A stretch of DNA of 27,446 nt from Clostridia bacterium. GTDB lineage: Bacteria; Bacillota; Clostridia; Oscillospirales; CAG-272. The notes under the pieces were generated by a model that ran no database searches, had not been told where the DNA came from, and saw only the letters and a list, made by a program, of their open reading frames with translations. Each line of letters begins with the position of its first letter. Positions within the stretch are counted from its first letter, which is position 1. Both the position numbers and the translations under genes were made by a program. Shown here in pieces: positions 1,588-27,190 of this stretch. Location: positions 1 through 27,446 of the forward strand of contig JAGALI010000241.1 in assembly GCA_017625275.1 (NCBI GenBank), written 5' to 3'.

Positions 1588-2483
1588 TTTATTATTTCCG
1601 CCTCATATCCCTTTCCAAAAATAACCTTTTCTATTGGATCATCTGATGATACTGTAAAGAAGGTAGCCTCTCTTGCGGCGCAATAGTCAATAAGCTCCTT
1701 TTCGTAATCATCAAATGCCTTTTGGTAGGCCTCAACCATTTTTCTTGTAATACGCATTCTCATGTTCTTTGAGTCCTCTAGCGATATCGACTCAGCATCA
1801 ATCATATGAACGCGTCCGTCAAAGTTCGGATACAATTCGTCAGGTGAAAGAATCTGAATACAAAGGATTTCTCTACGCTTAAAGGTCAAGAAATCTATTG
1901 CCTTCTTCCAGTCACTCTCTGTCAAAAAGTCCGAAATAATTATTGTTACACCGTCATCATATCCTGGTGATGGAATTCCAACTATTGATGCCTCAAGGTC
2001 TGTTTCACCCTCAAAGTCTGTGTTCTCGAGCACTTGAGCTGCACGATAGAAGGAATCCTTATTATATACAGTGAAGCCGATGTCCTCCGCCTTGTTGCCC
2101 TTTAGGAGCTTGTAGGAGACACGGTCCATTGCACAAACCGATAGATATCCAAATGCCGCCGCTATACGAAGGGCTTGCTCTGCCTTTTCAGGCTCACCAC
2201 ATGCCATCGACGCTGAGCAGTCAATCAAAATGTGATTGTGCATCTGTCTTTCATCCGTGAAAAGTCTTATAAAGTACTTTTCAAAACGGGCATATACGTT
2301 CCAGTCGATACGTCTAATATCGTCGCCTGGAAAGTATTCACGGAAGTCGGCAAATTCTACCGTACTACCATAGGAGCGCGCCTTACGGCCACCACCAAAG
2401 TAACCCGTCATTGGATTCTTAAGCAATAAAGAGGCAGCATCAAGACGGTCAAGAAACGCACCGTCTAATATTCTTCTTTTCAT
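1584..2483 (-). CDS. DUF58 domain protein (vWA-like partner of MoxR ATPases)
   Basis: Signature GSTVEFADFREYFPGDDIRRIDWNVYAR and MIDAS-like LIDCSASM; directly downstream of moxR; RBS AGGCGG. Confidence 0.95.
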   Translation of the reverse strand: MKRRILDGAFLDRLDAASLLLKNPMTGYFGGGRKARSYGSTVEFADFREYFPGDDIRRIDWNVYARFEKYFIRLFTDERQMHNHILIDCSASMACGEPEKAEQALRIAAAFGYLSVCAMDRVSYKLLKGNKAEDIGFTVYNKDSFYRAAQVLENTDFEGETDLEASIVGIPSPGYDDGVTIIISDFLTESDWKKAIDFLTFKRREILCIQILSPDELYPNFDGRVHMIDAESISLEDSKNMRMRITRKMVEAYQKAFDDYEKELIDYCAAREATFFTVSSDDPIEKVIFGKGYEAEIIK

Positions 2484-2501
2484 TTTTACCGCCTATTTAA
2501 A

Positions 2502-4226
2502 TTACTTTTTCTTTTTTCCGGCACTTTTTTCTACTGTTGCAGTAGAAACGTTGTTAAGGTCTGCAATAAGACTTCTTACTACATCGTCTGGTGACATCTT
2601 TGAGGTAACAGCCTCAAAGCCGAGCTTGAGTCTGTGACGAAGAACTGGAACTGCAAGTGAGTTGATGTCATCATAGGATACATTATATCTGCCGTTGATA
2701 AGAGCTCTTACCTGTGCTGCAGTAATAATAGCCTGCGCAGCACGAGGAGATGCTCCTGCACGGATATATCTCTTTGTTGTTTCTGGTGCAACTGCACTGT
2801 CTGGGTGTGTTGCTGCGATAAGAACCATCGCATAGTGGAGAACCTCGCTTGATACAGGGATTGTCTTAGCTACGGCTCTCATTCGGAGAAGCTCCTCACC
2901 ATTACAAGCTGCTTGCGCAGTTTCTTCCATGGTCTTATGTGTCATATTAACGATTTGTCCAAGCTCCTCAGCTGATGGGTTTGGAACGATAATCTTAAAC
3001 ATGAAACGGTCCATCTGAGCCTCTGGAAGTGGGTATGTACCATCCTGCTCAATTGGGTTCTGTGTAGCAAGCACGAAGAATGGCTCATCCATCTTTCTTG
3101 TTACACCCATTACTGTAACCTTGTGCTCCTGCATGGCCTCAAGCAAAGCTGCCTGTGTCTTTGGGGTAGCACGGTTAATTTCGTCGGCGAGTACTATGTT
3201 AGAGAAGATAGGACCCTTTTGGAACTCGAATTTTTGGTTTCCGTTTTCGTCCTTTGTAATAACGTTGGTACCTGTAACGTCGGCAGGCATCAAGTCAGGT
3301 GTAAACTGAATACGTGAGAATGGAAGGTCAAATACCTTACCAAGAGATCTTACAAGACGGGTTTTACCAAGTCCAGGAGCACCCTCGAGAAGTACGTTAC
3401 CACCGGCGATGATAGCTGCGATTGTAGATTCAACAACCTCTCTTTGACCGATCATATCCTTACGAACCTCTTCGAAGATTCTCTTACATTTTTCAGCGAA
3501 GAGCTTAAGCTCTGCCTCTGCAAGCTTATCTGTCTTGATTTCCTCTGCTGTGCGTGGTGGCTCAGCCTGTTTTGGTGCTTCAGCCTTCTTTGGCTCTTCC
3601 TTTACAGGTGCTGGCTGTTGTGCTGGTGCTGCCTTTGGAGCCTCTTGTGCTGGAGCCGCTTCCTTCTTTGGTTCCTCAGCCTTTGGAGCTTCCTCGGCTT
3701 TATCGTCATTCTTTCCAGCCTTTTCAGCCTTAGCCGCTGCCTTAGCCTCTTCCTTAGCTCTTGCAGCCTCTTCCTTAGCCTTTGCTGCTGCTTCCTTAGC
3801 CTTTAGCTTTTCAGCCTCTGCTGCCAATTTAGCCTCTTCCTTAGCCTTAGCTGCATCTGCCTTAGCCTTTGCAGCCTCCTCCTTAGCCTTTGCCTTTTCA
3901 GCATCTGCTGCAGCTCTAGCCTTGTCGGCCTCTTCCTTAGCCTTTGCCTTTTCAGCGTCAGCTGCAGCCTTAGCGTCTGCCTTAGCCTTATCAGCCTCTT
4001 CCTTAGCCTTCTTGTCTGCTTCAGCCTTTGCTGCCTTTTCAGCGTCGGCTGCCATCTTTGCCTTTTCCTTTTCGCTTAGCTCCACAACAGGTGCCTCCTT
4101 CTTTTTATCTCTACCAACTGTTGATATTGAAATACCACCAGACTGCTTATTAGCAGCAGAAGCATCTGCCGATGCTTTGCCGGCAGATGCTCCATTATTA
4201 ACGTTTTTATTTTCCATGTTTTCCAT
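2502..4226 (-). CDS. moxR: MoxR-family AAA+ ATPase with a long Ala/Lys/Glu-rich N-terminal extension
   Basis: Walker A GAPGLGKT, RIQFTPDLMPAD, Walker B VLADEINRATPKTQ, FFVLATQNPIEQDGTYPLPEAQMDRF, GASPRA, VLRHR. The ATPase core starts at about residue 240; residues ~1-235 are low complexity. Confidence 0.95.
   Translation of the reverse strand: MENMENKNVNNGASAGKASADASAANKQSGGISISTVGRDKKKEAPVVELSEKEKAKMAADAEKAAKAEADKKAKEEADKAKADAKAAADAEKAKAKEEADKARAAADAEKAKAKEEAAKAKADAAKAKEEAKLAAEAEKLKAKEAAAKAKEEAARAKEEAKAAAKAEKAGKNDDKAEEAPKAEEPKKEAAPAQEAPKAAPAQQPAPVKEEPKKAEAPKQAEPPRTAEEIKTDKLAEAELKLFAEKCKRIFEEVRKDMIGQREVVESTIAAIIAGGNVLLEGAPGLGKTRLVRSLGKVFDLPFSRIQFTPDLMPADVTGTNVITKDENGNQKFEFQKGPIFSNIVLADEINRATPKTQAALLEAMQEHKVTVMGVTRKMDEPFFVLATQNPIEQDGTYPLPEAQMDRFMFKIIVPNPSAEELGQIVNMTHKTMEETAQAACNGEELLRMRAVAKTIPVSSEVLHYAMVLIAATHPDSAVAPETTKRYIRAGASPRAAQAIITAAQVRALINGRYNVSYDDINSLAVPVLRHRLKLGFEAVTSKMSPDDVVRSLIADLNNVSTATVEKSAGKKKK
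3770..4060 (-). repeat. Degenerate in-frame coding tandem repeat (about 54 bp / 18 aa period) in the MoxR N-terminal arm
   Basis: Plus-strand CCTTAGCCTTTGCCTTTTCAGC recurs at ~3881 and ~3935 (54 bp apart); protein reads AAADAEKAKAKEEADKAR AAADAEKAKAKEEAAKAK. Confidence 0.8.
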
Positions 4227-4267: not shown

Positions 4268-7138
4268 TTATTTTTGAGTTGCTGTGCCCCAGCCCTGAAC
4301 CTGTTGCATCCATGAGTTGTTCCACTCTTGCTCTTCAGCAGAAAGGTTTTCGTCGCCCTTAGATGCGTCAATCTGGTTGTTAACGTGTGAGCCGTTTGTA
4401 CCGTTCAAGTATTCCTCAACAGTAACATCTCCAAGGTTTGGATGCCAAACAGTTCCATTTACAATGCTTGAGCCTGTACCATCACTGACAACGCCCTCTT
4501 CCTCTTCCTCCTCAGGAATTTCAGGTGGCTTCTCTTCCTCGCCCTTACCAGTTTGCTCTGACTTTTGATCAGACTCCTGCTCCTGCTCAGACTCAGACTC
4601 GGACTCCTGCTCACTCTTTTCATTGTTTATCTTGTCCTGAGTTTGCTGCATTTGGTCCTTCATCTGCTCAGCTGTTTGGTTTTGCTCAATGTTTGATTGC
4701 ATATCCTTGTTTAGCTCATCAAGAACCTCGTCAGCTGCTTCCTTTTTCTCCTCGTCAGTCATGTTTTCATCCTTGGCGATTTGATCCATTTTATCAGCTG
4801 CGTCTTCAAGTGGCTTCTTGAAATCGTTGTTCTCAGGAAGCTTATCGGCTGCATCCTGCATATCCTTTGAGATATCCTCAAGCTTTTGGTCGAGGTCATC
4901 GCCCTCAAGGTTCTCATAAGAATCCTTTACATTTTCGAAAGCATCATCAAGGTCTTCCTTAGCATCCTCGTATTCCTTGTCGGTTTCTGCCTTTTCAGCC
5001 TTGTCAAGCGCATCGCTTACCTCTTCCATGGTTTCGTTGTCCTTCATGGCGTCGCTAGACTCGCTCTGCTGCTTATCGTTCTCCTGCTCTATCTTGTCAA
5101 GCTCCTGCTTAGCATCAGATATAGCCTGATTTATCTTATCCTTAGCCTCCTGATCGATTTCCTCGTCAGTCTTTTCGTTGGTAGGATCATTCTTTTGGTT
5201 TTGCTTATCCTGCTCGATTTGATCAAATTCCTTCTCAAGCTCATCTATAACATCGTTAGCCTCTTGCTTAGCGTCCTCAGTAAGATTCTCGTTGTTATTA
5301 ACTTGATCTCTCATGTCATCGATAAGGTCGTCAGTATGCTTTTTATCACCAGCGAGGTTTTCCTCCATCTGGTCAAATTTTTGCTCAAGGTTTTCACCAG
5401 CCTGCTCAAGGTTTTCTATGTTCTCCATTGAATCCTGAACATTTTGCTCAAAGTTGTTGAAGGCGTCGTTGATTTCCTTATCCATCTTTTCGCCCTCTTC
5501 CATCTTATCATGGATGTCCTGAAGGTCGTTCTTCAAGTCCTCCATAGCACCCTCAAGCTCAGAGCTATCTTGATTCTCTTGATTTTCATTCTTATTAAGA
5601 ATATCCTCAAGAGCATTCTTATAATCCTCAACCTTGTCTTGCTTTTGTTGCTCATTATCAGAATTGAGAATGTCGTTCTTCATATCATCAATGATGTCGC
5701 TAACCTCTTGCTTAGCATCGTCAACCTTTTGTTGAGCGTCCTGCTTTTCCTGCTCGGTCTTAGCATTGTTAAGGTCATCCATTGCTTGGTCGAACTTATC
5801 CATAGCATCCTTAAGGTCCTCAAATTGCTCCTGCTTATCAAGAACATCGTTTAGGTCCTTATTAGCTTGGTCAACGCTCTCTTGAACATTTTCCTTAAGC
5901 TCAGCATCGGTTGAAGAATCCTCAAGGTCATTTTCAAGGTTTTCCTTAAGGTCCTCAAACGCATCCTTCATTGAGGTGTCAGGCATGTTTTCGATAGCCT
6001 GCTCAAGATCCTCTACAAGATCCTCAAGCTCGCTTCTATCCATTTCTGGAATCTTATCAAGAGCATCCTTAAGCTCTTCCTTAGCCTGCTCCTTTTCCTC
6101 CTCGGTTTCTGCCTTCTCTATCTTTTCAAGAGCATCAGCGATATCCTCGAGAGTTTCGTTTTCGGTATCCTTAAGAGCATCCTGCTCATCCTTGTTGTTT
6201 TGCTCCATATCCTGCTTGGTCTGCTCAAACAATTCGATTTGCTTCTTTATAAGCTCCTCAATTTCCTTTCTTGTTTGACGAACATCCTCGTATTTGTCAA
6301 CATCGGACTCGGTTACATCAAGTCTGGACTCAAGTGCATCTACGAGCTCGTGAAGCATTGTCTTGAAGCTATCTCCAACATCTGCCTCATCAATCATTGC
6401 ACGGATTTCATAGATTTGAACCTGAAGGTCAATCGAAACAAGGATTCTGTCCTTCATCGCCTCAGCCAAGAAAAGCTTTTGAGCATTTGTCATCTCTTCG
6501 TTTTCCTTGAGCTCATCAATTCTATCGTCGATTTGCGCATGTCCTATTGCAAGGAAGTCTTCCTTAACCTTGTCTGAGTTGCCGTCAAGCAAATCATGAA
6601 GCTCCTCTCTGATTTCCTCAAGTCTTTCGTCTGTCTCAAGGTCCTCTCTCTCAACAGCAGAAAGTGGTGCTGGCAAGATTGTAAAGAGAAGAAGAATTAC
6701 AAGAAACATTGCTACACAAGAAATGATTCTTCTAATTGGTAATCTAAGCTTAAATTGCTTTACGTTGAGCTTGGAGATACGCTCCATTGTGTCCTCACGC
6801 TGTACCTTAGCAACAAAGGAACGGTCCTTTTTGTACTCTACCATTGTGATTACACGCTCATCAAGTCCAAGAGCGTCTATTCTCTTAGCAAGCTTATCCA
6901 CATTTGATTTAAAGCGCTTCTTGTAGGTTGAAACGCCGATTGCCACAGCTGTCACTACACCTAAGCCGATTGTTAAGAGAACAGGTATTAAGCTAACATC
7001 GTTTAGGATATATCTGCAAACGAGAGCAGATACAAGTGAAACTGCAAGTCCAAAGAACAAGCCGGTCATTATCGCTTTAAGAAAAGCTTCAACCATAAGT
7101 CTTATTCTATAGGGCTTCATTGCCTCATTAAATTCCAT
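4268..7138 (-). CDS. 956-aa membrane-anchored, highly acidic helical-repeat protein; first gene of the MoxR operon; function unknown
   Basis: Three N-terminal hydrophobic segments with a basic loop (LAKRIDALGLDERVITMVE) between TM2 and TM3, then ~800 aa of D/E/K/Q-rich helical sequence with internal repeats; RBS AAGGAG and own promoter. Confidence 0.85.
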   Translation of the reverse strand: MEFNEAMKPYRIRLMVEAFLKAIMTGLFFGLAVSLVSALVCRYILNDVSLIPVLLTIGLGVVTAVAIGVSTYKKRFKSNVDKLAKRIDALGLDERVITMVEYKKDRSFVAKVQREDTMERISKLNVKQFKLRLPIRRIISCVAMFLVILLLFTILPAPLSAVEREDLETDERLEEIREELHDLLDGNSDKVKEDFLAIGHAQIDDRIDELKENEEMTNAQKLFLAEAMKDRILVSIDLQVQIYEIRAMIDEADVGDSFKTMLHELVDALESRLDVTESDVDKYEDVRQTRKEIEELIKKQIELFEQTKQDMEQNNKDEQDALKDTENETLEDIADALEKIEKAETEEEKEQAKEELKDALDKIPEMDRSELEDLVEDLEQAIENMPDTSMKDAFEDLKENLENDLEDSSTDAELKENVQESVDQANKDLNDVLDKQEQFEDLKDAMDKFDQAMDDLNNAKTEQEKQDAQQKVDDAKQEVSDIIDDMKNDILNSDNEQQKQDKVEDYKNALEDILNKNENQENQDSSELEGAMEDLKNDLQDIHDKMEEGEKMDKEINDAFNNFEQNVQDSMENIENLEQAGENLEQKFDQMEENLAGDKKHTDDLIDDMRDQVNNNENLTEDAKQEANDVIDELEKEFDQIEQDKQNQKNDPTNEKTDEEIDQEAKDKINQAISDAKQELDKIEQENDKQQSESSDAMKDNETMEEVSDALDKAEKAETDKEYEDAKEDLDDAFENVKDSYENLEGDDLDQKLEDISKDMQDAADKLPENNDFKKPLEDAADKMDQIAKDENMTDEEKKEAADEVLDELNKDMQSNIEQNQTAEQMKDQMQQTQDKINNEKSEQESESESEQEQESDQKSEQTGKGEEEKPPEIPEEEEEEGVVSDGTGSSIVNGTVWHPNLGDVTVEEYLNGTNGSHVNNQIDASKGDENLSAEEQEWNNSWMQQVQGWGTATQK

Positions 7139-7748: not shown

Positions 7749-10700
7749 TTAGCCTACCTTGGAGATTACAACTGTACCAGCATCAGGAATTGCGTCGAAG
7801 TAAAGAACGCCATTCTTAACTGTACAAGCCATATCCTCAGCCATGTTAGGTGCATACTTATCGTTTTTAACAACAGGGATTGATACGCCATTTTGTGTTA
7901 CTGTTACATTTGTCCAACCACTTGGAAGATTAAACTCAAAGGTTAGAGGCTGTTGGAACATAACATCATCAAGTCCATCTGTAATTTCAACAGAAATTTG
8001 AGTGCTACCAACTGTCATGCTTGAAACGCTTGCAGCGTGTGCCTCTCTGAAGTAGAGGAGCGCCTCGTTGTAGGAGGATACCCAAACGCCAGTCTTAACA
8101 AAGTAGTCGAGCTTCTTTTCAAATACGCTCTTAGGAACGCTGAACTTATCGGTTAATACTGGTGTATCTGCTACATCAATTGTATGGATACAGTCAGCAG
8201 TCCAAAGTCCGTTCTTTACGATATGATCGATAGCGCCCTTATAGTCAACGCCCTCTCTTTCGCTTGCAGAAGCGCCAAAGGTTGTTGTTCTATAGGTGAT
8301 ATAAGATGGTAGGTTACCCCATTGCTCTCTTGTTGTGAGTGAATCAGGGTCACAATAGGTTCCTGCCTGACCACCACTACGTCCACCGAGCATAAGGTCG
8401 TTTACAAAGTTAGCTGTTCCTGCGCCTGTTGCACCGTTAGGTGTAGCAAAGCCGATTACTCTTTGACCTGGCACCCAGCTCATAAGAGTATAGAACGCAT
8501 CGTCAATCTCAGATCCCAATGTGATTTCATCCATATCTTCGCCTGTAAATGGTCCTGCGTGGAAGGATGAGTGAGAGCCGATGTCAAATGCACCAGATGC
8601 AACATACTTCTTCCAGTCTGTTACATAGCCACTTGAGTATTGAATTGTCAAAACAGCTGTTGCCTTCATATGACGCTTCGCAAGCTCTGGATATACCCAC
8701 TCATATGTGTCGATATAGTTACCATCGTCGAAGGTCATTGACCATGATGCAGGTGCATTATGGTAGTACTTTGTTACCTTTGGAACTGCAATGTAGCCAT
8801 CGCCTGTTCTGTATTCTGTAACATCTAGCTTTGTTGCACCACAGCCTGATGTACAGGAGTATTCATTAACCTTATTGTTGTTAAGGTCTGTATCAGCTAC
8901 AGCCTGACCCCACTTGTGGCCGTTTGCTTCAATAGCATCTGTCTTCCATCTCTTGTCACACATCATACACTCATAAACAGTGTAGCCTGCGCTTGTACAG
9001 GTAGGAGCAACTATCTCCACAGGCTCTGCCTTTGTGTACTTGTGAGGACAAGACTCATTTTCTGGAAGTGTCTGTGCAATTTCAGCAACAGTATAAGGAA
9101 TTACATCATTTACATACGCACCAAAGCGCGCTGTTTCTCTTGTTACCTCAAGACGGAATGCTGTAAGGTATTCACCAATATCAACTGTAAACTTAGCATA
9201 AGGAGCAGATACATCGCCTACCTCAAGACGCTTGAGCTCAACCCAGTATCCACCATCCGCCTCGTTTGTATCCTCAACCCACTTTTGGAGAGACATTTCT
9301 CTTCCCCTTGTACTATCGCAGGAAATCTGGATATACGCTATGAATTGTGGAGTTGGGAATGTGAAGGAGGCATAAACCTTCCTTCTATTTGTTAGCTTAA
9401 TATCATTATAGTCTTTATTTGTACCACTTTCATTAATAGTAACACCTGTGATGTAGTGGTGGTCTCTATCCTCGTCAGCGCCATAGTTATCAACCTCTAC
9501 ACGAACAACGGAAACGCCATCAAGGGCTGATGTTTGCTCCTTACCCTCGCTATCCTTCCATTTAGGTGTGAAGGTATATGTGCCTGTGTCGCCTTCCTTT
9601 ACGGTATACTTACCGAAGCTAATCCATTCGGTTTTTGTATCCCAAATATCGTTACCATTCTCGTCCTTTGCAGGCTCCTTGAGTGGTTTTCCCTCTGGGT
9701 CAAGAAGGGTTTCCCATATTTCGTTACCATTTTCGTCAAGAAGTGGGTTTCCTTGCTCGTCGGTTAGCTTAACCTTTTGGTTTTGCATTCTCTGCTCATT
9801 CCATGAGCGACATGCCCAAACCTCAATGGTCTCGCCAACGATAACCTTACTTGCCTTTACAACCACATTGCCAATTGACTTGGTTGGGTCAACATTATTT
9901 TGATTATCCTTTACGCCGTATTCAACCATCCAGTTGGTAATATCCTCAAGATACTTGTTACTGTTGTATACAGGATTTTCCCACCATACACGGGCGTCAG
10001 TACACCATGAAGTAACTGTTTTGTTATCAAGAAGGTTTGCAGCGCTGGAATCAACCCATGCGTTATATGAACCAGTAATAAAGCCTGTTGCCAAAGGTCC
10101 AATAGACTGTGGTCTTCTAAGAACCTGATCGTTTCCGAGGTAAGCATATGCTGCAACCTCACAAATCATTGCAGGAGTATAACGACCTGCGTGAGTTACT
10201 GTGAATCTAATTTTACTTGTTGTCTTTGGCTCAGTAAGAGCAAGTGATACTGTTACCTTTTGTGACTTAGGGTCTCTGTTGTCAGCGTCAGAGATTTCTC
10301 CAACCTTAACCCATGCGTCATCAACAAACATTTCTACATCATATTTTACATAGCAATCATCGCCAAGCGCCCAGCCGTAATAGTTAGGAAGAACAAGCTC
10401 AACTGTCTTAAATTCATAAGCAGTCAAGAATTCAACCGTTAGCTGGTCACCTGTGTAGCTTGTGCCGTCAACAAGTGTGTCTGCTCTCCAATAGGTAGCA
10501 GGTGCGCCATCAAGCACATTAGATGCAAGTGTAAGTCTATAAAGAGATGTTGCATAGGCTGTTGCAGTAGAAGCAACATTTACATACTTCTTGTCACCGT
10601 GTGAAACGGTTTTGATGTCAAGAGTGTCGTAGAGTGCTACATTCTTAGGCTCAACCACGTCAACTTTACCCTCAACACAGCCGACTGTCATGCAAGCCTG

Positions 10701-11378
10701 TCTCTTTTCGCCGTATGCATAATCTGTTGGCTCAAGTGTAACATACCAGTCTGTGTATACATGCTCACCCGTTGCCAATGCATTTGGGTCAATCTCCTCA
10801 ACCCTGTAGTCACAGTCCTCTCTCTTACACTTTGTTATAATTTTTCCATTCTGGTAGCAGGTTGGTTCCTTGTTTGTTGTCTTAAGGTCGTGTCCCTGCG
10901 CCTCTTGAATAAGAGTTGTTATAATTCTACCCTGTTCGTTATTACATTGTGGATTACGACATTGCTTAACGAGCATATGGTTGGTTGTACAGCTAAGAGG
11001 TGTATAACCTATTGTTTTGTATCCTGCTGAGTGAGCACATGGTGGCTCCGGACTCCATTTTGCAACTAGCACAAGGTCACCTGTAACCTTCTTTGCAGAG
11101 GTGTACTTGGTTGTAAACTCTGTGTCGTCCTCGGCATACCAGCCTTCAAAAATAAAGCCCTTTCTATAAGGTGTTGGAAGCTCACCTATCTTCTGATTGT
11201 ATTCAACCTCTCTGCCCTCAAGCTCAGGCGCGCCCTCATAGTTAAGATTGAAGGTTACCTCGAAAAACTCACCCTCAAGGTTTTCTGATGGTTCTTCCTC
11301 TTCATCACCACCACAGGCAACAAGCATAAAGGTCAAGCACAGAAGCAAAGCAAGAATTGCTAAAAGTCTTTTTTTCAT
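7749..11378 (-). CDS. 1209-aa modular lipoprotein: InlB B-repeat (Flg_new-like), Cys/His repeats, discoidin/CBM32-like domains, C-terminal polysaccharide deacetylase (CE4/NodB-like)
   Basis: Lipobox LVA|C22; VTFNLN...PTPYRKGFIFEGWY (B-repeat); H..PTC..G..C..C repeats; ASNVLDG...YW and AANLLDNKTVTSW (discoidin-like); TFDDG (D884/D885) and HSSFH (H936/H940) deacetylase metal motifs. Confidence 0.8.
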   Translation of the reverse strand: MKKRLLAILALLLCLTFMLVACGGDEEEEPSENLEGEFFEVTFNLNYEGAPELEGREVEYNQKIGELPTPYRKGFIFEGWYAEDDTEFTTKYTSAKKVTGDLVLVAKWSPEPPCAHSAGYKTIGYTPLSCTTNHMLVKQCRNPQCNNEQGRIITTLIQEAQGHDLKTTNKEPTCYQNGKIITKCKREDCDYRVEEIDPNALATGEHVYTDWYVTLEPTDYAYGEKRQACMTVGCVEGKVDVVEPKNVALYDTLDIKTVSHGDKKYVNVASTATAYATSLYRLTLASNVLDGAPATYWRADTLVDGTSYTGDQLTVEFLTAYEFKTVELVLPNYYGWALGDDCYVKYDVEMFVDDAWVKVGEISDADNRDPKSQKVTVSLALTEPKTTSKIRFTVTHAGRYTPAMICEVAAYAYLGNDQVLRRPQSIGPLATGFITGSYNAWVDSSAANLLDNKTVTSWCTDARVWWENPVYNSNKYLEDITNWMVEYGVKDNQNNVDPTKSIGNVVVKASKVIVGETIEVWACRSWNEQRMQNQKVKLTDEQGNPLLDENGNEIWETLLDPEGKPLKEPAKDENGNDIWDTKTEWISFGKYTVKEGDTGTYTFTPKWKDSEGKEQTSALDGVSVVRVEVDNYGADEDRDHHYITGVTINESGTNKDYNDIKLTNRRKVYASFTFPTPQFIAYIQISCDSTRGREMSLQKWVEDTNEADGGYWVELKRLEVGDVSAPYAKFTVDIGEYLTAFRLEVTRETARFGAYVNDVIPYTVAEIAQTLPENESCPHKYTKAEPVEIVAPTCTSAGYTVYECMMCDKRWKTDAIEANGHKWGQAVADTDLNNNKVNEYSCTSGCGATKLDVTEYRTGDGYIAVPKVTKYYHNAPASWSMTFDDGNYIDTYEWVYPELAKRHMKATAVLTIQYSSGYVTDWKKYVASGAFDIGSHSSFHAGPFTGEDMDEITLGSEIDDAFYTLMSWVPGQRVIGFATPNGATGAGTANFVNDLMLGGRSGGQAGTYCDPDSLTTREQWGNLPSYITYRTTTFGASASEREGVDYKGAIDHIVKNGLWTADCIHTIDVADTPVLTDKFSVPKSVFEKKLDYFVKTGVWVSSYNEALLYFREAHAASVSSMTVGSTQISVEITDGLDDVMFQQPLTFEFNLPSGWTNVTVTQNGVSIPVVKNDKYAPNMAEDMACTVKNGVLYFDAIPDAGTVVISKVG

Positions 11379-19259: not shown

Positions 19260-20876
19260 TTATTTCGCTAGCGCCCTTTGGGCGAGCCTTCTTATCCTTT
19301 TAAGAGCTTTTATGCTATGAGGATAATCGGTAAATGTCCTTTTAAAGCCGTTTTCAAGAAGAAGCGCCTCGGCACCCTCTCTTCCTATTTTCTCCTCTAA
19401 GCGCTTAAAGAGCATATAGTCCTGTATTGCATCATAAAAGTTTTCGTGGCGAATGGAATCAAGCGCGCCGTCCTTGCCTGGATAAACAGAAAACGCATCT
19501 CCGCTTTGCAGTCCTCCTCCACAATCTGTAATCAAATATGGGTCAACAGCCTCATCGGAAAGAACTGAGTTGTAGAAATTATAGCCCCAGTGCAAAAAGC
19601 CCTTAATATCGTTTAGGTACATTTGCATGCCAAGCACCCTTATTCTCTCTCCAGACATCGACATGTATCTGTTAGATAGGTAGGAGTGTGTCTCTGCACA
19701 GCAATAATAAGCCCACAAATTTGGGGTTTTATTATCAAGAAAGGCTTGAATATGCGCTGTTGAGGAAATGGCACCATCAACAAGCCCCTGCTTGTAAAAC
19801 TCGTAGTGGCTAAGTGCGTCCATTACTGGAGCATCTGGTGCATATTTTTTGAAAATTCTTCTTGCGCTTTTATAGTCCTCAAGACACTGCTCATTTGGCT
19901 CATCGGAGATATGGAAGCGACAATCCTGATATAGCCCTTCCTTCTTCAGTGTGGCAACAAGCTGAGGTAAAAATGCGCCCAAAAACGCCTCGTATTCCTC
20001 TCCTACTGCACGACTCTCCCAGCCAAAAATGCGCCTTACTCTTCCGTTCACCTTGGCCACTATTTTCGGTGCAAATTTCGCACCCCATTGGGTAAATAGA
20101 TGGCTCATTTCAAAGTACTTAATGCCAAGCTCCCTTACCTTTTTCATAAAGGAAATTAAGCGTGCAAAATCAAATTCATATCCAGCCTCTGTCTTGGTAA
20201 CATCGACAAGCTGTACAGTCAGCCTTTCCTTTCCCATTCTTGTGTCAAGTGGTGGGGTGAACATAGGCACTAAAAGCATATTCATTCCATGTCTTACGGC
20301 ACAGCTTATAAAATTGTACATTATTTTGTTGTATTTGGGTGAGAACACCTTCAAATTATAATACTGGGCAAGACCATCATAATGAAACCAGTTTGTATAT
20401 ACAAGAGTGCTTTCTCCTAGATAAAAATCGAGGACCGTAACCTTATATTCTGCTTTTCCGATAACATATCCATTTTGCTCAAGCGAAATTTCTATTGGGT
20501 ATTCACCTGGGGTTAAATCGCCCTTTATGGTAAACCATATACTATTGTATGAGCCTAATCTTGCCGTTGGCTTACGCTTCTCGCAGGAGCACAAAACATC
20601 TGGGCATAAAAATGGCTTTTTGGTTAAATAATAGTCATCCGTTGCGCCTAGAACAGGAGTTGTGCAGGGAACATATTCAACCTGTCTGTAGGTTATGTAC
20701 TTTTTTATCGGACTTTTTATCTTTACCTCTATTTCCTTTTGAAGCCACTCTATTTTATACGCAACCTGAAAGGACAAGGTCTCATCCCTTGCCATTGTGT
20801 TCTCCCTTTCAACCATTTTAGGTCTTTTGTCTATAAGCACCCTTTCCTCAGCGCATATTGTATAAATTTCGTTCAT
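19260..20876 (-). CDS. DUF4091-domain glycoside hydrolase (GH123-like, putative beta-N-acetylgalactosaminidase/hexosaminidase)
   Basis: HISDEP (D325-E326 pair), WAYYCC, GFLHWGYNFY, GDAFSVYPG..SIRHE..DAIQDY (DUF4091 C-terminus); no signal peptide; RBS AGGAGG. Confidence 0.75.
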   Translation of the reverse strand: MNEIYTICAEERVLIDKRPKMVERENTMARDETLSFQVAYKIEWLQKEIEVKIKSPIKKYITYRQVEYVPCTTPVLGATDDYYLTKKPFLCPDVLCSCEKRKPTARLGSYNSIWFTIKGDLTPGEYPIEISLEQNGYVIGKAEYKVTVLDFYLGESTLVYTNWFHYDGLAQYYNLKVFSPKYNKIMYNFISCAVRHGMNMLLVPMFTPPLDTRMGKERLTVQLVDVTKTEAGYEFDFARLISFMKKVRELGIKYFEMSHLFTQWGAKFAPKIVAKVNGRVRRIFGWESRAVGEEYEAFLGAFLPQLVATLKKEGLYQDCRFHISDEPNEQCLEDYKSARRIFKKYAPDAPVMDALSHYEFYKQGLVDGAISSTAHIQAFLDNKTPNLWAYYCCAETHSYLSNRYMSMSGERIRVLGMQMYLNDIKGFLHWGYNFYNSVLSDEAVDPYLITDCGGGLQSGDAFSVYPGKDGALDSIRHENFYDAIQDYMLFKRLEEKIGREGAEALLLENGFKRTFTDYPHSIKALKRIRRLAQRALAK

Positions 20877-22226: not shown

Positions 22227-22790
22227 ATGAAAAAGATTTTATGTCTTATAATTTGTGTCCTATCTGCCTTGTCTCTTTGCTCCTGCTCCAGCTGTGAAAG
22301 AGATGATGAGGGTGGCACTCTTGCTGTTCCTGTGTTGACAATTAGCGAATTTGGCGAGGTTAGCTGGGAAGCGCAAGGGGGCGCTGTTGGATACGAATAC
22401 AAAATAAACGATGGTGAGCCCGTTTTTGTTGAGCACACCGTAAATAAGATATTAATTCTCTCTGGTGAGAGCATTTGCGTGCGCGCGCTTGGTGATGGCG
22501 AAAAATACACATCAAGCGAATGGAGCGAGGCGATTACAAGAGGTCTTATTCAGCTACCCAAGCCTATCGTTACCTCTAAGGAGGTTGGCGAGCAGGTTTT
22601 GGTGCTTTGGGAAAAGAACGCCAGGGCAAGTGGCTATATTATTCGCATAAATGATGGAGAGGAAATCTCCGTTGAAGGCGACTCCGAGGGCTATCTTATC
22701 AGCAAGAACGACACTATATATGTTCGTGCTAAGGGTGATGGCGTTGCCTTTGCTGATAGTGATTGGACCATTGTAGGGGCTGTTAAATAA
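22227..22790 (+). CDS. Small lipoprotein with two fibronectin type III-like repeats
   Basis: Signal peptide ending in LSLCSC; repeats P..W..A.GY..INDG..VRA.GDG..S.W occur twice; RBS AAGGAG overlapping the upstream stop. Confidence 0.7.
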   Translation: MKKILCLIICVLSALSLCSCSSCERDDEGGTLAVPVLTISEFGEVSWEAQGGAVGYEYKINDGEPVFVEHTVNKILILSGESICVRALGDGEKYTSSEWSEAITRGLIQLPKPIVTSKEVGEQVLVLWEKNARASGYIIRINDGEEISVEGDSEGYLISKNDTIYVRAKGDGVAFADSDWTIVGAVK

Positions 22791-22826: not shown

Positions 22827-22856
22827 AAAAGACACAATCGCAGGATTGTGTCTTTT
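22827..22856. terminator. Bidirectional terminator between convergent genes
   Basis: AAAAGACACAATC-GCAG-GATTGTGTCTTTT. Confidence 0.88.
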
Positions 22857-22859
22857 CTT

Positions 22860-25820
22860 TTATATTTTAAGTCCTTGTGCGATTTTGAGCATTCGCTCAA
22901 CATCTACCTTGAGGGCACGTCTGTCATAGGTTAGCAGTCCGTTTGTTTCATCCTCTACATCGGATACCTGTGTATAGATTGAGGCGCAAAGCCCTTCCCT
23001 TACAAGTGGGATTATCTCGTCATTGTAAAGAGCCTCAAGGGCGTCCATAAAGTCCTCTTTTTTCTCAAAGAAGCGATAGCCATAGGTCTTATCAAGATTA
23101 AAGGAGTGTCCCTCTAGCTTGCAGGAATAGCCACCAAACTCGCTTAGCACAAGAGGGGCGCTTCCCTTTTTCATTTTTACGCGCTTAAAGTACACATGCT
23201 CGCTTATGACATCGCTTGGTGCTCCCTTGAACCAGCCTGAGGCTGTGTCAATGAAGCGTGAGGAATCAAGTGATTTTAGTAGCTCATACATTCTTGCACT
23301 ATCAAATTGTCCCCAGCCCTCGTTAAAAATAGTCCAATAGCATATACATGGGTGATTATAAAGTGCGTCTACTGTTCCTCGCATCGCATCCTCAAACGCC
23401 TGTCTTGTTGCGCTATCACGATGAAGCCCTTTATCATTTCTCGTCTTTACACCTATTGTTGGTAGGGCTGTATCTCGAATAAAGGAATATGCTCCATTAT
23501 TCACCATATCCTGAAAAACGACTATTCCGTGCTTATCGCAGTAGTAATAAAACAGCTCTGGCTCGATTTTTATATGCTTTCTGAGGGTATTAAAGCCAAG
23601 CGCCTTCATCTCAAGCACATCTCTTTCAAGATTTTTAGGCGATGCCGGAGTGTAAATTCCGTCGGGATAATAGCCTTGGTCTAAAAGTCCATGGAAGAAG
23701 TATGGTCTTGAGTTAAGGCATAGGCGAGGGGTGTTATCTACCTCTTTTATTTCAAGCGTGCGTACGGCAAAGTAGGATTTTACAATATCCTTACCTGCCT
23801 CAATGGTAAAGTGATACAAATATGGAGACTCTGGTGACCATTTTTGAGGGCTAGCCAGCTCTATTTTGCACACACCATCGCTCATTTTATATTCATCGCC
23901 ATTGTCAAGCGTGATTTTCGCCTCATCTACTCCCTGCGCCTTTATTATAGCTCCGTTTTCGCTTGGCTCTATTTTCATCGCCCTTATATACTCGCTAGGC
24001 ACACACTCAAGCCAAACGCTTTGCCATATTCCACTAACAGGTGTATACCACATTCCTCCTCTTTTAAGGCGTTGCTTACCATATGGCAAAATGTGATTTT
24101 CGAGCATGTCCTCTACACGCACCTCAAGCATATTATTTTGCTCAAGCGCGTCTGTTATATCAAACGAAAATGGCAAATATCCACCTACATTTTTGCCAAT
24201 CTCCTTGCCGTTTAGGTATACTGTTGTAATTTGGTCTGATGCGCCAAAATTCAGTATAGTTCTATCGCCTGCAAGCTCGCATGGCAGGGTGAACTCCTTC
24301 TTATACACAAGCCTTGTGACCCTTTTTGGTGTCCTACCTATTCCAGAAAGAGGGCTTTCTGGTGGAAATGGAACAAGTATTTTTTCCTCTGCTCCACCAT
24401 TTATTGATATGCTCCACTCACCATTAAGAGAGAAATATGAATCTCTTTTTAGCTGTGGGCGTGGATACTCATCCCACGCGCAAGGGTCGTGCTCCTCACC
24501 CTCCCTTGTGTAAAGAGTGCGAAGCCTTGGTGCTTGAAGCTTATTCATAAGCATAAGCATAGGCACCAAAAGCGCGCCAAGCACTATAACCACAACCAAG
24601 GCGCCTGTAAATATGCTTTCATTTGGCAAAAACGAGGTTGTGCCATCGCCATTTGTTATAATTTCGGCATCCTTTAAAATTGCCTTTCCTATCATAGGGC
24701 CTATAACACCTGGAATTAAAACCTGTGCCACAATTCTAAGTCCTTGGAACATTCCTGACTTGTTTTCTGGAGTGTTATCACGAATTGACGCGCCAAAAAC
24801 TGCCATTGATGAAAGATAGCCACACATCATAAGAAGCGAGCCGATAAACACAGGCAGGGCTGTGCGCGTGAAAATAAGGATTATATATCCCAGTGCAAGA
24901 AGCGAAACTGACACCACAACTGATTTTTTAAAGCGTAGCTTATCGTATGCCCTGCCCCAAAGCGCCGTAAACACCGAGGCAAGTATAATTGCTGGTGCCA
25001 TTATAAACACATAATCTGTCATTTGAAGTGATTTTTCATAATAGATTATGAGATATGGCATAAAGATTTGGATTGATATTCCAAATACAGCAAACGCAAA
25101 AAGAAGCATATATAGCACAGGGCTTTGCTTTATTACGCTTGGACGAAAGCCATAGAATATATTCTTAAAATAGCTTTGATTTTGCTCTGTTTTAATTTGT
25201 GGGTCGCTTATAAGGAAAAAGCCAAGCACGCCTATTATAACAACAGCTATGCCTATAACAAGGAATATAACCGTCCAGCTCTCGCTTATTGACTGGTCAA
25301 GACCCATGAAGCCACCAAACACGCAAAGAATTGCAACAAGTGGCATCATTGAGTTAATTCCCTCAGCCCTTCCTCTATCCTTTTCCGTGGTGACATCGGT
25401 TAGCCACGCATTAAAGCAGGCATCGTTTGCGCTTGAGCCGAAAAAGGTCATAACGCAATCCATTATTATAACAAGGGTTATACAAACAGCGCTAGCTGAG
25501 GCAAGTGGGAATAGCTTGCCAATTATATCCACGCGTATGAGTGCAAAGGATAAAATCGACACGCCCCAAAGTATATAGCCACCACAAATAAAGGCACGCC
25601 TTTTTCCTAGCTTATCAGAAAGCGCTCCTATAAGAAGGGTGGTTACTGTTGCGCTAATCGCGCTTGCCGACACCATAAGAGAAATATCCGAGGGTGAGGC
25701 ATTGAACATCTTGTAGATGAATACATTAAAATACATATTCTCTACAACCCAAGCAATTTGACCTGTAAGACTGAAAATTACGAGGGCTATATAAAATTTA
25801 CTTCTCTTTTGCTCTTTCAT
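22860..25820 (-). CDS. MFS transporter fused to a glycoside hydrolase family 2 enzyme
   Basis: Residues ~1-426: 12 hydrophobic helices with MFS motif A (GALSDKLGKRR). Residues ~445-986: YPRPQL..SLNGEW, LNFGASD, SGIWQSVWLE, HGLLDQGY, GFNTLRKHIKIEP, FNEGWG (E834) and LSEFGG (E894). One continuous frame. Confidence 0.9.
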   Translation of the reverse strand: MKEQKRSKFYIALVIFSLTGQIAWVVENMYFNVFIYKMFNASPSDISLMVSASAISATVTTLLIGALSDKLGKRRAFICGGYILWGVSILSFALIRVDIIGKLFPLASASAVCITLVIIMDCVMTFFGSSANDACFNAWLTDVTTEKDRGRAEGINSMMPLVAILCVFGGFMGLDQSISESWTVIFLVIGIAVVIIGVLGFFLISDPQIKTEQNQSYFKNIFYGFRPSVIKQSPVLYMLLFAFAVFGISIQIFMPYLIIYYEKSLQMTDYVFIMAPAIILASVFTALWGRAYDKLRFKKSVVVSVSLLALGYIILIFTRTALPVFIGSLLMMCGYLSSMAVFGASIRDNTPENKSGMFQGLRIVAQVLIPGVIGPMIGKAILKDAEIITNGDGTTSFLPNESIFTGALVVVIVLGALLVPMLMLMNKLQAPRLRTLYTREGEEHDPCAWDEYPRPQLKRDSYFSLNGEWSISINGGAEEKILVPFPPESPLSGIGRTPKRVTRLVYKKEFTLPCELAGDRTILNFGASDQITTVYLNGKEIGKNVGGYLPFSFDITDALEQNNMLEVRVEDMLENHILPYGKQRLKRGGMWYTPVSGIWQSVWLECVPSEYIRAMKIEPSENGAIIKAQGVDEAKITLDNGDEYKMSDGVCKIELASPQKWSPESPYLYHFTIEAGKDIVKSYFAVRTLEIKEVDNTPRLCLNSRPYFFHGLLDQGYYPDGIYTPASPKNLERDVLEMKALGFNTLRKHIKIEPELFYYYCDKHGIVVFQDMVNNGAYSFIRDTALPTIGVKTRNDKGLHRDSATRQAFEDAMRGTVDALYNHPCICYWTIFNEGWGQFDSARMYELLKSLDSSRFIDTASGWFKGAPSDVISEHVYFKRVKMKKGSAPLVLSEFGGYSCKLEGHSFNLDKTYGYRFFEKKEDFMDALEALYNDEIIPLVREGLCASIYTQVSDVEDETNGLLTYDRRALKVDVERMLKIAQGLKI

Positions 25821-26704
25821 TCTTCCTCATCAAGCTCCTTGTCAGGCTCCTTTTCCACTATCTTTTCAAAGGGAAAAAGAAGATTGGTTTCGTTTTTGTA
25901 CTCCTCGAAGCCTTCCTTTTTCGCCTGCCTTTCCTCTGCCATTGGTATGCTGACAAAGGCAAACAAAAGACTGTTTGCAATTGCCCCTGCGAGCATATAC
26001 CACATATCAGGACGCTGCGCGATACAATATAGCGCAACACCCCACCACATAAGTATCTCTCCAAGATAGTTGGGATGGCGCGCGTTTTTCCAAACGCCTA
26101 TTCTTACAAAGGTTGTCCTTCTGCTTTTTCTATATATGTGCATTTGAATATCTGCTATGGTCTGTAGGGTAATTGCGATAACGCTCAAAAGAAGAGCGAC
26201 AAGCCCCTCTGGCTCAAGCACTGGTCTTGCTATTATAACATGCATAGCAGGAAGCGTGCAAAGATACACAACCAGCGTTGGTACAATATGTATTCCAAGA
26301 AGATTTATAAGTGGATAAAGTGTGCCTGTTTTCTCCTTGAGCATTGTATAGCGCCAATCCTGATGTGCCATTCCCTTAAAGGTGTATGCCCAGTTTGCAG
26401 TTAGGCGCACTCCCCAAATGGCAATCACTATCAGCACAAGCGCTGAGGTTAAATTCAAGCCATAGCCAATTGCAAAGCAAGCAAGAATTATAATCGGCTG
26501 AACGCTCCAATAAGGGTCATATACCGACGCATTTTTGAATATAACGCTAAATACAAAAATCACAAGCGTTGCCACTATATCTGCAATAAGCAACGCTAGC
26601 CACGCAGTAAAATCAAGCGCCTGATACACAAGCACGCCTACCACTGTAGCAAGAATGTATGCAAGTGATATTATTATAAAGCTCGGTGCTCTTTTTATGT
26701 TCAT
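25817..26704 (-). CDS. DUF1295 membrane protein (steroid 5-alpha-reductase/ICMT-like superfamily)
   Basis: ASVYDPYWS, WGVRLT, DWRY, IADIQM, GVWKNARHPNYLGEILMWWG; multiple TM helices; ATGA overlaps on both sides. Confidence 0.85.
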   Translation of the reverse strand: MNIKRAPSFIIISLAYILATVVGVLVYQALDFTAWLALLIADIVATLVIFVFSVIFKNASVYDPYWSVQPIIILACFAIGYGLNLTSALVLIVIAIWGVRLTANWAYTFKGMAHQDWRYTMLKEKTGTLYPLINLLGIHIVPTLVVYLCTLPAMHVIIARPVLEPEGLVALLLSVIAITLQTIADIQMHIYRKSRRTTFVRIGVWKNARHPNYLGEILMWWGVALYCIAQRPDMWYMLAGAIANSLLFAFVSIPMAEERQAKKEGFEEYKNETNLLFPFEKIVEKEPDKELDEEE

Positions 26705-27165
26705 TTTTCTATCTCCTTGCCTTTAAGATTTTCCAAAAGCTCAACACAGCCCCTGTAGATTTCCTTATATGCCACATCAAAATCGTCAGTATACCAAGGG
26801 TCACTAACATCCTTTTCGTTTAGCTTTCTTATTTTGTTTTCTGGGTCAGAGCCAAAAATAAGGCTCATATTTCTTATATTGGCACTATCCATTCCTACGA
26901 AAATATCGTATTTATCATAGTCATCGGCTCTGAGTCTCACTGCTCTTTTTCCACCGCAGGATATTCCGTGCTTCGCAAGCTCCTCTCTCGCGGGAGGATA
27001 AACGGGATTGCCTACAGCGCCCCATATCTCCTCCGAGCTCGTTGCGCTTGAGGCAATATAAAATCTATCTTCAAGACCTCTTTTTGCCACCATATCCTTG
27101 AATATAAATTCCGCCATTGGTGAACGGCAGATATTCCCGTGGCAGACGAACATTATTTTCGTCAT
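26701..27165 (-). CDS. Low-molecular-weight protein-tyrosine phosphatase family protein
   Basis: P-loop FVCHGNICRSPMAE (CX5R) and DPWY; ATG 27165 has a GAGGAGAG RBS and is preferred to the track start at 27186. Confidence 0.92.
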   Translation of the reverse strand: MTKIMFVCHGNICRSPMAEFIFKDMVAKRGLEDRFYIASSATSSEEIWGAVGNPVYPPAREELAKHGISCGGKRAVRLRADDYDKYDIFVGMDSANIRNMSLIFGSDPENKIRKLNEKDVSDPWYTDDFDVAYKEIYRGCVELLENLKGKEIEK

Positions 27166-27190
27166 ACTTCTCTCCTCGCAAAACACGCGT

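Follow-up and report, generated by a model that had tools for sequence, protein, structure and literature searches.

The combination of a permease with a cytoplasmic glycosidase is textbook knowledge, with LacY/LacZ as its example. In LacY/LacZ and UidB(GusB)/UidA of Escherichia coli, and in LacS/LacZ of Streptococcus thermophilus, a secondary transporter of the MFS/GPH superfamily is paired with a cytoplasmic enzyme of glycoside hydrolase family 2 (GH2). Here, we analyse a 27,446-nucleotide stretch of DNA, the whole of contig JAGALI010000241.1 from a Clostridia bacterium (assembly GCA_017625275.1; hereafter the window), in which one gene encodes a predicted major facilitator superfamily (MFS) permease and a GH2 glycosidase as a single chain. 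The fusion belongs to a two-gene MFS-GH2 module that is found widely among gut Clostridia and whose two genes have repeatedly fused and separated. The module would share the import-then-cleave logic of the LacY/LacZ-type pairs, and its split form resembles their adjacent operon genes. However, the LacY/LacZ-type pairs are separate polypeptides with group I GH2 enzymes (beta-galactosidase, beta-glucuronidase) and permeases from other families, whereas the MFS-GH2 module forms a single chain in many lineages and contains a GH2 enzyme of the furanosidase type.

There are precedents for secondary carriers that bear, at their cytoplasmic end, a covalently attached soluble domain acting on or responding to what the carrier transports. 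LacS is composed of a GPH carrier and a C-terminal IIA-like regulatory domain, and LplT-Aas is an MFS lysophospholipid transporter fused to an acyltransferase/acyl-acyl carrier protein synthetase. Both differ from the MFS-GH2 fusion, as the soluble domain of LacS is regulatory and that of LplT-Aas is a lipid-modifying enzyme. We found no published description of an MFS-glycoside hydrolase fusion, the natural single-chain version of the permease-glycosidase pair, in a search that covered little of the subscription-journal literature. The words 'fused' and 'fusion' are absent from a 2026 review of bacterial glycoside transporters. A 2025 paper on GH2 subfamilies reports GH2_19 proteins to be without other known domains, and its secretion-signal analysis excluded proteins containing transmembrane (TM) segments (PMC12243196).

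The protein of known structure that best matches the GH2 half is BACCELL_01794 of Bacteroides cellulosilyticus (7SF2; E 1e-97 over the full length). It has the same motifs, but is a stand-alone, uncharacterised GH2 protein of 588 residues with no transporter. The beta-D-galactofuranosidase ORF1110 of Streptomyces sp. JHA19 (GH2_18; 9J6M/9J6N; PMC11627007, PMC4560423) matches over the full length with E ~1e-91. It shares the three-domain core of a jelly roll, an immunoglobulin-like domain and a TIM barrel, eight identical residues that catalyse or contact a galactofuranose (Galf) mimic, and the threonine characteristic of GH2 group III. ORF1110 is secreted by means of a signal peptide, acts extracellularly on fungal galactomannan, and has a CBM42-like domain at its C-terminus. 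In contrast, the GH2 half of the window protein, known from its sequence, lacks a signal peptide and a carbohydrate-binding module (CBM), is fused to a transporter and is predicted to be cytoplasmic. New in the present analysis are the mixture of fused and split forms within one genus, the anatomy of the junction, a formal test that rejects one origin for all fusions, the finding that connector length is constrained, the distinction of the GH2_18-like transporter-linked enzyme from its GH2_19-like paralogue, and the distribution of the Galf-synthesis marker Glf.

Architecture of the fusion protein

The fusion gene occupies positions 22860..25820 of the minus strand, on which all its features described below are located. 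It is composed of 986 codons and a TAA stop, with zero internal stops in the open reading frame list and translation, in agreement with the single 986-residue frame of an earlier first-pass annotation made from the sequence. Full-length homologues share 46-73 % identity with the protein, and four congeners have the same unbroken fusion at 66-73 % identity. The fused frame might be suspected to be an artefact of assembly or sequencing, or a pseudogene in decay, because the window is an entire contig (C234) of a fragmented metagenome-assembled genome (MAG; 1.41 Mb, 242 contigs, 86.6 % complete), and because the copy of the congener G010 contains an in-frame TGA in its MFS half. This explanation is effectively refuted. 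The junction (nucleotides 24465-24536) is covered by Logan contigs of three independent studies, which contain substitutions only and zero indels; this range overlaps the positions 24490-24545 for which the first-pass annotation had proposed to seek read support. One 11.8-kb Logan contig covers the entire gene. The 29 variants listed in the Logan contigs comprise 19 synonymous and 10 missense changes and no stop, orthologous fused frames number in the hundreds, and invariance extends to all catalytic residues and to many residues of the MFS half. The fusion gene is therefore almost certainly genuine.

The G010 copy (L007/L015; G010:C147, JAFTIV010000162.1) is the nearest fused relative of the window gene, at 73 % identity. 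Its TGA is the single in-frame stop within the MFS half, and an 848-residue frame remains downstream. The gene could be a pseudogene or have been inactivated recently, or the TGA could be a sequencing error.

The MFS half (residues 1-428; 24537..25820) was delimited by Pfam, hydropathy, the positive-inside rule, AlphaFold2 (AF2) models and Foldseek. The MFS_1 profile (PF07690) matches residues 32-375 with E 1e-32 and 113.8 bits against a cut-off of 33.4, and it also matches 47 of 47 family members. Hydropathy delineates 12 TM segments, at residues 9-27, 46-68, 77-97, 109-132, 154-176, 184-205, 235-257, 271-291, 300-318, 324-346, 360-382 and 407-427, and none were found past residue 430 in a scan of the 986-residue protein. 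Lysine and arginine are more frequent at the N-terminus, after TM12 and in three of the loops (2-3, 6-7 and 8-9). This positive-inside bias, together with the even number of TM segments, places both termini of the MFS half inside the cell and predicts that the GH2 half is located in the cytoplasm, which upholds the earlier claim of a 12-TM permease with cytoplasmic termini. An odd TM count, which the first-pass annotation had named as grounds for placing the enzyme outside, is not observed.

The loop between TM2 and TM3 contains MFS motif A (G65-ALSDKLGKR-R75, nucleotides 25596-25628), with G65, D69, G72 and R74 unchanged across 71 sequences. AF2 models of the MFS half contain 12 long helices and a central loop, with a predicted local distance difference test score (pLDDT) of 89 and a predicted template modelling score (pTM) of 0.86. 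All 366 PDB structures matched by the model in Foldseek at E <= 0.001 are MFS transporters. They are generic fold matches, with TM-scores of ~0.6-0.75 and identities of 10-18 %, among which there is no informative MFS subfamily, and the top matches include no GPH structure. PDB sequence searches, in which the MFS half was used both singly and in the form of a profile of 49 sequences, returned nothing useful (best match 6G9X, E 0.11), and a look-up in the ESM Atlas returned solely unnamed 'MFS transporter' clusters. The Pfam model MFS_2, which represents the GPH (glycoside-pentoside-hexuronide:cation symporter) type, has no match in the window protein at E <= 0.01; it weakly matches 20 of 47 relatives (best 1e-11), each time scoring below MFS_1 in the same protein. 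Profile, motif A, helix count and predicted fold thus all characterize the MFS half as a canonical MFS transporter. The AF2 models also contain an extracellular beta-hairpin between TM11 and TM12 (residues 386-398; 24627-24665), in which and next to which D392, G393, T394, F397, P399 and N400 are strongly conserved. The hairpin is unusual for an MFS protein and could serve as a substrate-capture lid.

The connector between the halves (QAPRLRTLYTREGEEHDPCAWDEY) runs from TM12 up to the YPRP motif, as delimited by junction comparison. The first-pass annotation had placed a linker of ~20 residues at 24490-24545; a linker is indeed present there, but it measures 24 residues (429-452) and spans 24465..24536, overlapping the range given earlier. 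It is rich in charged residues, threonine, leucine and proline rather than in glycine and serine, and contains the motif L-x-T-(P/E)-(F/x)-(E/G), with L436 and T438 nearly invariant. The length of the connector in fused homologues has a mode of 25 residues and lies between 23 and 28 in 64 of 71. In the AF2 model of the full-length protein (mean pLDDT 89.3, whole-chain pTM 0.74), the connector has a pLDDT of 83-92. For domains of 430 and 550 residues, a pTM of this value suggests that the model gives them a defined position relative to each other.

In split loci, the counterpart of the connector is an extension at the N-terminus of the free GH2 protein. The start of the free enzyme, M-K-I-K-H-L-Y-T-K-E-G-E, is equivalent to residues 433-444 of the fusion (R-L-R-T-L-Y-T-R-E-G-E-E), ~6 residues past TM12. 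Unlinked GH2 orthologues retain this L-x-T extension, and a free-standing GH2_19-like paralogue lacks it. The retention suggests that the extension has a conserved role, possibly in docking.

The GH2 half is composed of an N-terminal, sugar-binding jelly-roll domain (residues ~453-610; 23991..24464), an immunoglobulin-like middle domain that forms a beta-sandwich in the AF2 model (~611-705; 23706..23990) and a TIM-barrel catalytic domain (~706-986; 22863..23705). The limits are based on Pfam and on alignment to 9J6N, 7SF2 and the residues of ORF1110. PF02837, PF22666, PF00703 and PF02836 match in canonical GH2 order (Glyco_hydro_2_N 498-604, Glyco_hydro_2 633-684, Glyco_hydro_2_C 727-863). They all exceed the curated Pfam cut-offs, as does MFS_1, so that the profile search suggested by the first-pass annotation identifies both halves. 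At E <= 1e-5, the GH2 half matches 120 GH2 chains in the PDB. The chains of beta-glucuronidases reach ~1e-25 at best, as compared to the values for 7SF2 and ORF1110 given above. These differences agree with the clade named in the first-pass annotation, which was that of GH2 enzymes including galactofuranosidases and not that of LacZ or UidA. A beta-glucuronidase of the UidB-UidA kind was rejected, since the PRK10150 equivalog model scores 113.6 bits against an NCBIfam cut-off of 544 and the match to PDB beta-glucuronidases is as weak as stated. A LacZ-type beta-galactosidase was likewise rejected, with NCBIfam models scoring 69-88 bits against cut-offs of 999-2000.

The predicted catalytic residues are the acid/base E834 (23319-23321), which follows N833 in the FNEGWG motif and aligns with N463-E464 of ORF1110, and the nucleophile E894 (23139-23141), which follows S893 in SEFGG and aligns with E530. 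Both glutamates are thus located where they had been placed before. In ORF1110, the residues that catalyse the reaction or bind the Galf mimic iminogalactitol are K212, Y228, H401, N463, E464, E530, Y551 and E594; the O6 hydroxyl, by which Galf differs from arabinofuranose (Araf), is recognised by Y228, K212 and E594 (PMC11627007). In a HMMER alignment, their counterparts in the window protein are all identical: the jelly-roll residues K582 (24075-24077) and Y592 (24045-24047), followed by H749, N833, E834, E894, Y915 and E958. These eight residues are invariant in 71 fused homologues with identities down to 46 %, as are R747 and Y877, equivalent to R399 and Y512 of ORF1110, and T950.

The furanosidases of family GH2 form group III, which comprises subfamilies GH2_18 and GH2_19 of the CAZy subdivision (PMC12243196). 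The hallmark of the group is a threonine, here T950, in place of the tryptophan that stacks in the -1 subsite (PMC12243196 and its supplement). All five characterised GH2_18 enzymes are galactofuranosidases, and GH2_19 includes one galactofuranosidase, one arabinofuranosidase and two beta-galactosidases (PMC12243196 supplement). The GH2 half scores 310 bits over the full length with the GH2_18 proxy 9J6N and 175 bits in a partial alignment with the GH2_19 proxy 7XYR. Residues and scores together assign the GH2 half to the furanosidase group (group III), on the side of GH2_18 and ORF1110.

Nearly every genome of the genus, the source genome included, also encodes a free-standing GH2 paralogue of ~570 residues and ~38 % identity (G000:C87:49-1281, L002/L004; L135:913-2625). 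The paralogue is GH2_19-like (7XYR, 410 bits) and has the N-E motif, but is without the N-terminal extension and starts directly at the PRP motif. Since it is of the GH2_19 type, the transporter-linked GH2 enzyme represents a distinct, dedicated lineage. Organisms of the genus thus keep two distinct group III GH2 enzymes.

Fused and split forms of the module

In a search of a protein collection, all 120 matches listed are fused proteins of ~990 residues with 57-73 % identity, and those that have an NCBI name are called 'MFS transporter'. Species-representative genomes contain at least 578 fusion loci, so that the fusions which the first-pass annotation had suspected to exist in databases, uncharacterised, are indeed there under a label that mentions the transporter only. 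The hosts are members of Oscillospiraceae, Acutalibacteraceae, Christensenellaceae, Lachnospiraceae (including Roseburia and Acetatifactor) and Erysipelotrichaceae, as well as one Bacilli MAG and one Sphaerochaetaceae MAG, and originate mostly from the guts of ruminants and other herbivores. The family is therefore abundant in Clostridia of herbivore and other guts, and its label hides the glycosidase from name-based surveys. Analyses of carbohydrate-active enzymes that discard transmembrane proteins may miss the family as well.

The genus of the window includes five genomes with the fused gene (G010 among them) and at least ten with adjacent genes, in which an MFS gene of ~440 codons is directly followed by a GH2 gene of ~565 codons. 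The natural split pair L012 encodes proteins of 436 and 559 residues. Frequencies are more fairly estimated from 301 genomes sampled evenly across 30 families of the order than from the 80 loci of the species-representative scan, which are biased to fused forms by the full-length query. The order sample contains 61 carriers, of which ~12 have fused genes, ~20 have split adjacent genes, and ~10 have the orthologues on different contigs; in the remaining carriers, the GH2 gene alone was detected at the threshold used. The first-pass annotation had held that its reading would suffer if orthologues were normally split and gained nothing from channelling. Split arrangements do outnumber fused ones in the order sample, which bears out the former part of that concern. 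Among 32 split pairs, 21 consist of overlapping genes, with a GH2 start located 4-26 nucleotides ahead of the MFS stop. In three other pairs (L017, L021, L121), the two genes are in the same frame and are parted solely by a TAA that is directly followed by ATG or GTG; these three loci are one point mutation or a stop read-through short of fusion.

In a tree of 122 GH2-domain rows, the distribution of fused and non-fused states requires 11 changes, at least six of which are forced by well-supported branches, and an IQ-TREE phylogeny of 51 rows requires 10. A single fused clade was rejected by the AU test (delta lnL 580, p-AU 4e-5). The phylogenies thus indicate multiple changes of state and reject a single origin of the fusion. 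The window gene belongs to a fully supported clade of six rows of the genus, all fused, whose sister group of 23 rows is almost entirely split. Of the Lachnospiraceae rows, 18 of 18 are fused. The pairwise identities of the two halves are correlated (r = 0.83). Mean pairwise identity across 109 loci is 61 % for the transporter half and 52 % for the enzyme half. The many independent fused and split versions constitute a natural experiment on the kinetic benefit of covalent transporter-enzyme coupling.

Proposed function and competing explanations

We propose that the fusion protein takes up a small galactofuranoside and hydrolyses it on the cytoplasmic side of the transporter, and consider this overall reading fairly probable. 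The 12-TM MFS permease, probably a cation or H+ symporter, would import a small glycoside or oligosaccharide with a furanose at its non-reducing end, most likely beta-D-galactofuranose. The GH2 enzyme, held at the cytoplasmic face by the short, ordered connector of 24 residues, would function as a retaining exo-furanosidase that cuts off the furanose immediately after entry, and the galactose set free could feed central metabolism once its ring has equilibrated. The fusion could thus be viewed as a hard-wired version of the MFS-then-GH2 gene pair, in which stop and start usually overlap. It is highly likely that both halves act on the same substrate. The conserved active-site residues tip the balance slightly towards a beta-D-galactofuranoside. 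We infer the direction of transport, the Galf substrate and any direct hand-over between the halves.

Galactofuranose is made by bacteria, fungi and protozoa, and not by mammals or plants. No Glf (PF03275), a marker of Galf synthesis, was identified in the source genome (86.6 % complete) or in the near-complete carriers G021, G023 and G003; Glf occurs in only 8 of 24 genomes of the genus. Recycling of the organism's own Galf glycans is unlikely, as Glf was not found in most carriers, several of which have incomplete genomes. A galactofuranoside, if it is the substrate, is therefore more likely scavenged from other microbes, and is probably foreign to the cell. The fusion proteins would in that case mark a widespread cross-feeding route on microbial glycans, and would be the first intracellular bacterial galactofuranosidases linked to a dedicated importer.

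Several observations weigh against this proposal, and a number of them fit a protein of the same architecture and logic whose substrates are alpha-L-arabinofuranosides, such as plant cell-wall arabino-oligosaccharides, or a beta-galactopyranoside. The hosts are mostly MAGs from ruminant and other herbivore guts, where arabinofuranosides are abundant. The C6 hydroxymethyl group is the sole difference between Araf and Galf, and Y592 is the sole residue that contacts the Galf-specific O6 alone, so that residue conservation leaves Araf possible. Group III includes, in addition to galactofuranosidases, an enzyme active on both Galf and Araf, an alpha-L-arabinofuranosidase from Thermotogae and two beta-galactosidases (PMC12243196 supplement). 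GH2_18 enzymes are reported to be ~80 % secreted and rare in Bacillota (PMC12243196), which makes the fused clade atypical for the subfamily, and the assignment of the GH2 half as GH2_18-like is by PDB proxies. The MFS half is without a close characterised relative, its substrate class, coupling ion and direction being deduced from context, and no neighbouring regulator or catabolic gene corroborates the substrate. However, the residues that bind O5 and O6 in ORF1110 are all invariant here, including the O6-only contact Y228/Y592 and the bidentate E594/E958, and ORF1110, which has this site, is strictly specific for Galf (PMC11627007). Furthermore, the arabinofuranosidase and the beta-galactosidases belong to GH2_19, whereas the enzyme linked to the transporter more closely resembles the GH2_18 proxies, the GH2_19 type being represented in the genus by the paralogue. 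An alpha-L-arabinofuranoside or another glycoside is therefore a rather unlikely substrate, to which we assign a minor share of the probability.

The covalent link itself is dispensable, since split and even unlinked arrangements are common and the link is thus not required for function. It is conceivable that the fusion provides no mechanistic gain, and that an ordinary permease and a soluble-type glycosidase undergo near-neutral fusion and fission as accidents of abutting genes, by stop-codon loss or a one-nucleotide shift. The result would be at most a 1:1 stoichiometry and membrane localisation of the enzyme, with no channelling. The frequency of split-adjacent and unlinked orthologues, which equals or exceeds that of fused ones, speaks for this explanation, as do the junctions that are one mutation from fusion (TAA-ATG/GTG in 3 loci, overlaps of 4-26 nucleotides in 21) and the six to eleven or more state changes spread over small and large clades alike. 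It accounts less well for a connector that is predicted to be ordered and has a tight length across independently fused lineages, for the L-x-T extension that is kept by unlinked GH2 orthologues and missing from the GH2_19 paralogue, and for the persistence of fused clades across families, such as in all Lachnospiraceae rows. We regard near-neutral fusion as a serious contender, although one that we rate below even chances.

Repeated fusion, together with translational coupling and the constraint on the connector, suggests that closeness of the two halves is favoured. The short, ordered and length-constrained connector, recurrent fusion and translational coupling of the split genes also favour channelling; nevertheless, we consider direct hand-over of the substrate, beyond co-localisation, doubtful. 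It is also possible, albeit improbable, that the protein is an obligate vectorial machine, in which the L-x-T peptide docks the GH2 half so that its active site covers the exit of the MFS half into the cytoplasm, the split form assembling the same complex non-covalently, and hydrolysis of the incoming galactofuranoside pulls transport. If so, the module would provide a route for glycosides that resembles group translocation and is independent of the phosphotransferase system, and its natural fusions and fissions would be ready-made controls.

A different role would arise if the MFS half handled a membrane glycolipid or a lipid-linked glycan, in the manner of LtaA or LplT, and the GH2 half trimmed it at the inner leaflet. 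MFS lipid flippases and the MFS-enzyme fusion LplT-Aas are precedents, and neither sequence nor fold matches fix the MFS subfamily of the fusion. Against such a role, the top PDB matches show no sequence likeness and no preferential fold likeness to LtaA or LplT, and the MFS_2 model that is also matched by 20 of 47 family members is of the glycoside/sugar type. Moreover, an own Galf glycolipid is probably not made by most carriers, in which Glf was not found, and there are no lipid-metabolism neighbours at 73 fused loci. We therefore consider a lipid substrate very unlikely.

Genomic surroundings of the fusion gene

The fusion gene is the last of a three-gene unit with 4-nucleotide overlaps, in which it is preceded by genes for a low-molecular-weight phosphotyrosine phosphatase (26701-27186, minus strand) and a DUF1295 membrane protein (25817-26704, minus strand), both identified by Pfam. 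The DUF1295 protein has weak similarity to the steroid-reductase and ICMT families. As read directly from the sequence, the start region (25817..25828) is composed of a Shine-Dalgarno-like GAGGAAG (25822-25828) and the ATG (25818-25820), which overlaps the TGA stop of the DUF1295 gene as ATGA. The phosphatase-DUF1295 pair precedes the fusion in the same order in L006, L008 and L009, fused relatives from this genus, and elsewhere in 3 of 73 fused loci, so that its linkage is retained solely in the fused clade of the genus. Directly after the fusion stop, a terminator scan identified a perfect hairpin of 13 base pairs flanked by an A-run and a T-run (22827..22856, assigned to neither strand), which is likely a bidirectional terminator shared with a convergent gene (22227-22790, plus strand).

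Across the 73 fused loci, there is no conserved regulator or catabolic partner, and the top neighbour recurs in nine. The recurrent neighbours are ABC exporters (9 loci), GH123 (5), MatE (4) and SASA esterase (4). The MFS-GH2 module is thus effectively self-contained. In the window, a GH123-family gene (19260-20876, minus strand; E 2.5e-97) is located ~2 kb away and belongs to a transcription unit other than that of the fusion. Five other loci (the L050, L054, L063 group) also have a GH123-like gene, immediately upstream of the fusion and in the same orientation. This proximity may hint at a shared glycan source.

The remainder of the window contains, at 1-4226 of the minus strand, a classic MoxR-DUF58-VWA operon, composed of a MoxR-type AAA ATPase (2502-4226), a DUF58 protein (1584-2483) and a BatA/VWA protein (1-1587) that runs off the contig. 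A reading frame of 956 residues at 4268-7138 (minus strand) has no Pfam match at E <= 1e-5. The gene at 7749-11378 (minus strand) encodes a protein of 1209 residues that contains a Listeria-Bacteroides repeat, an F5/8 type C domain and a polysaccharide deacetylase domain, and is probably a surface carbohydrate-active protein.

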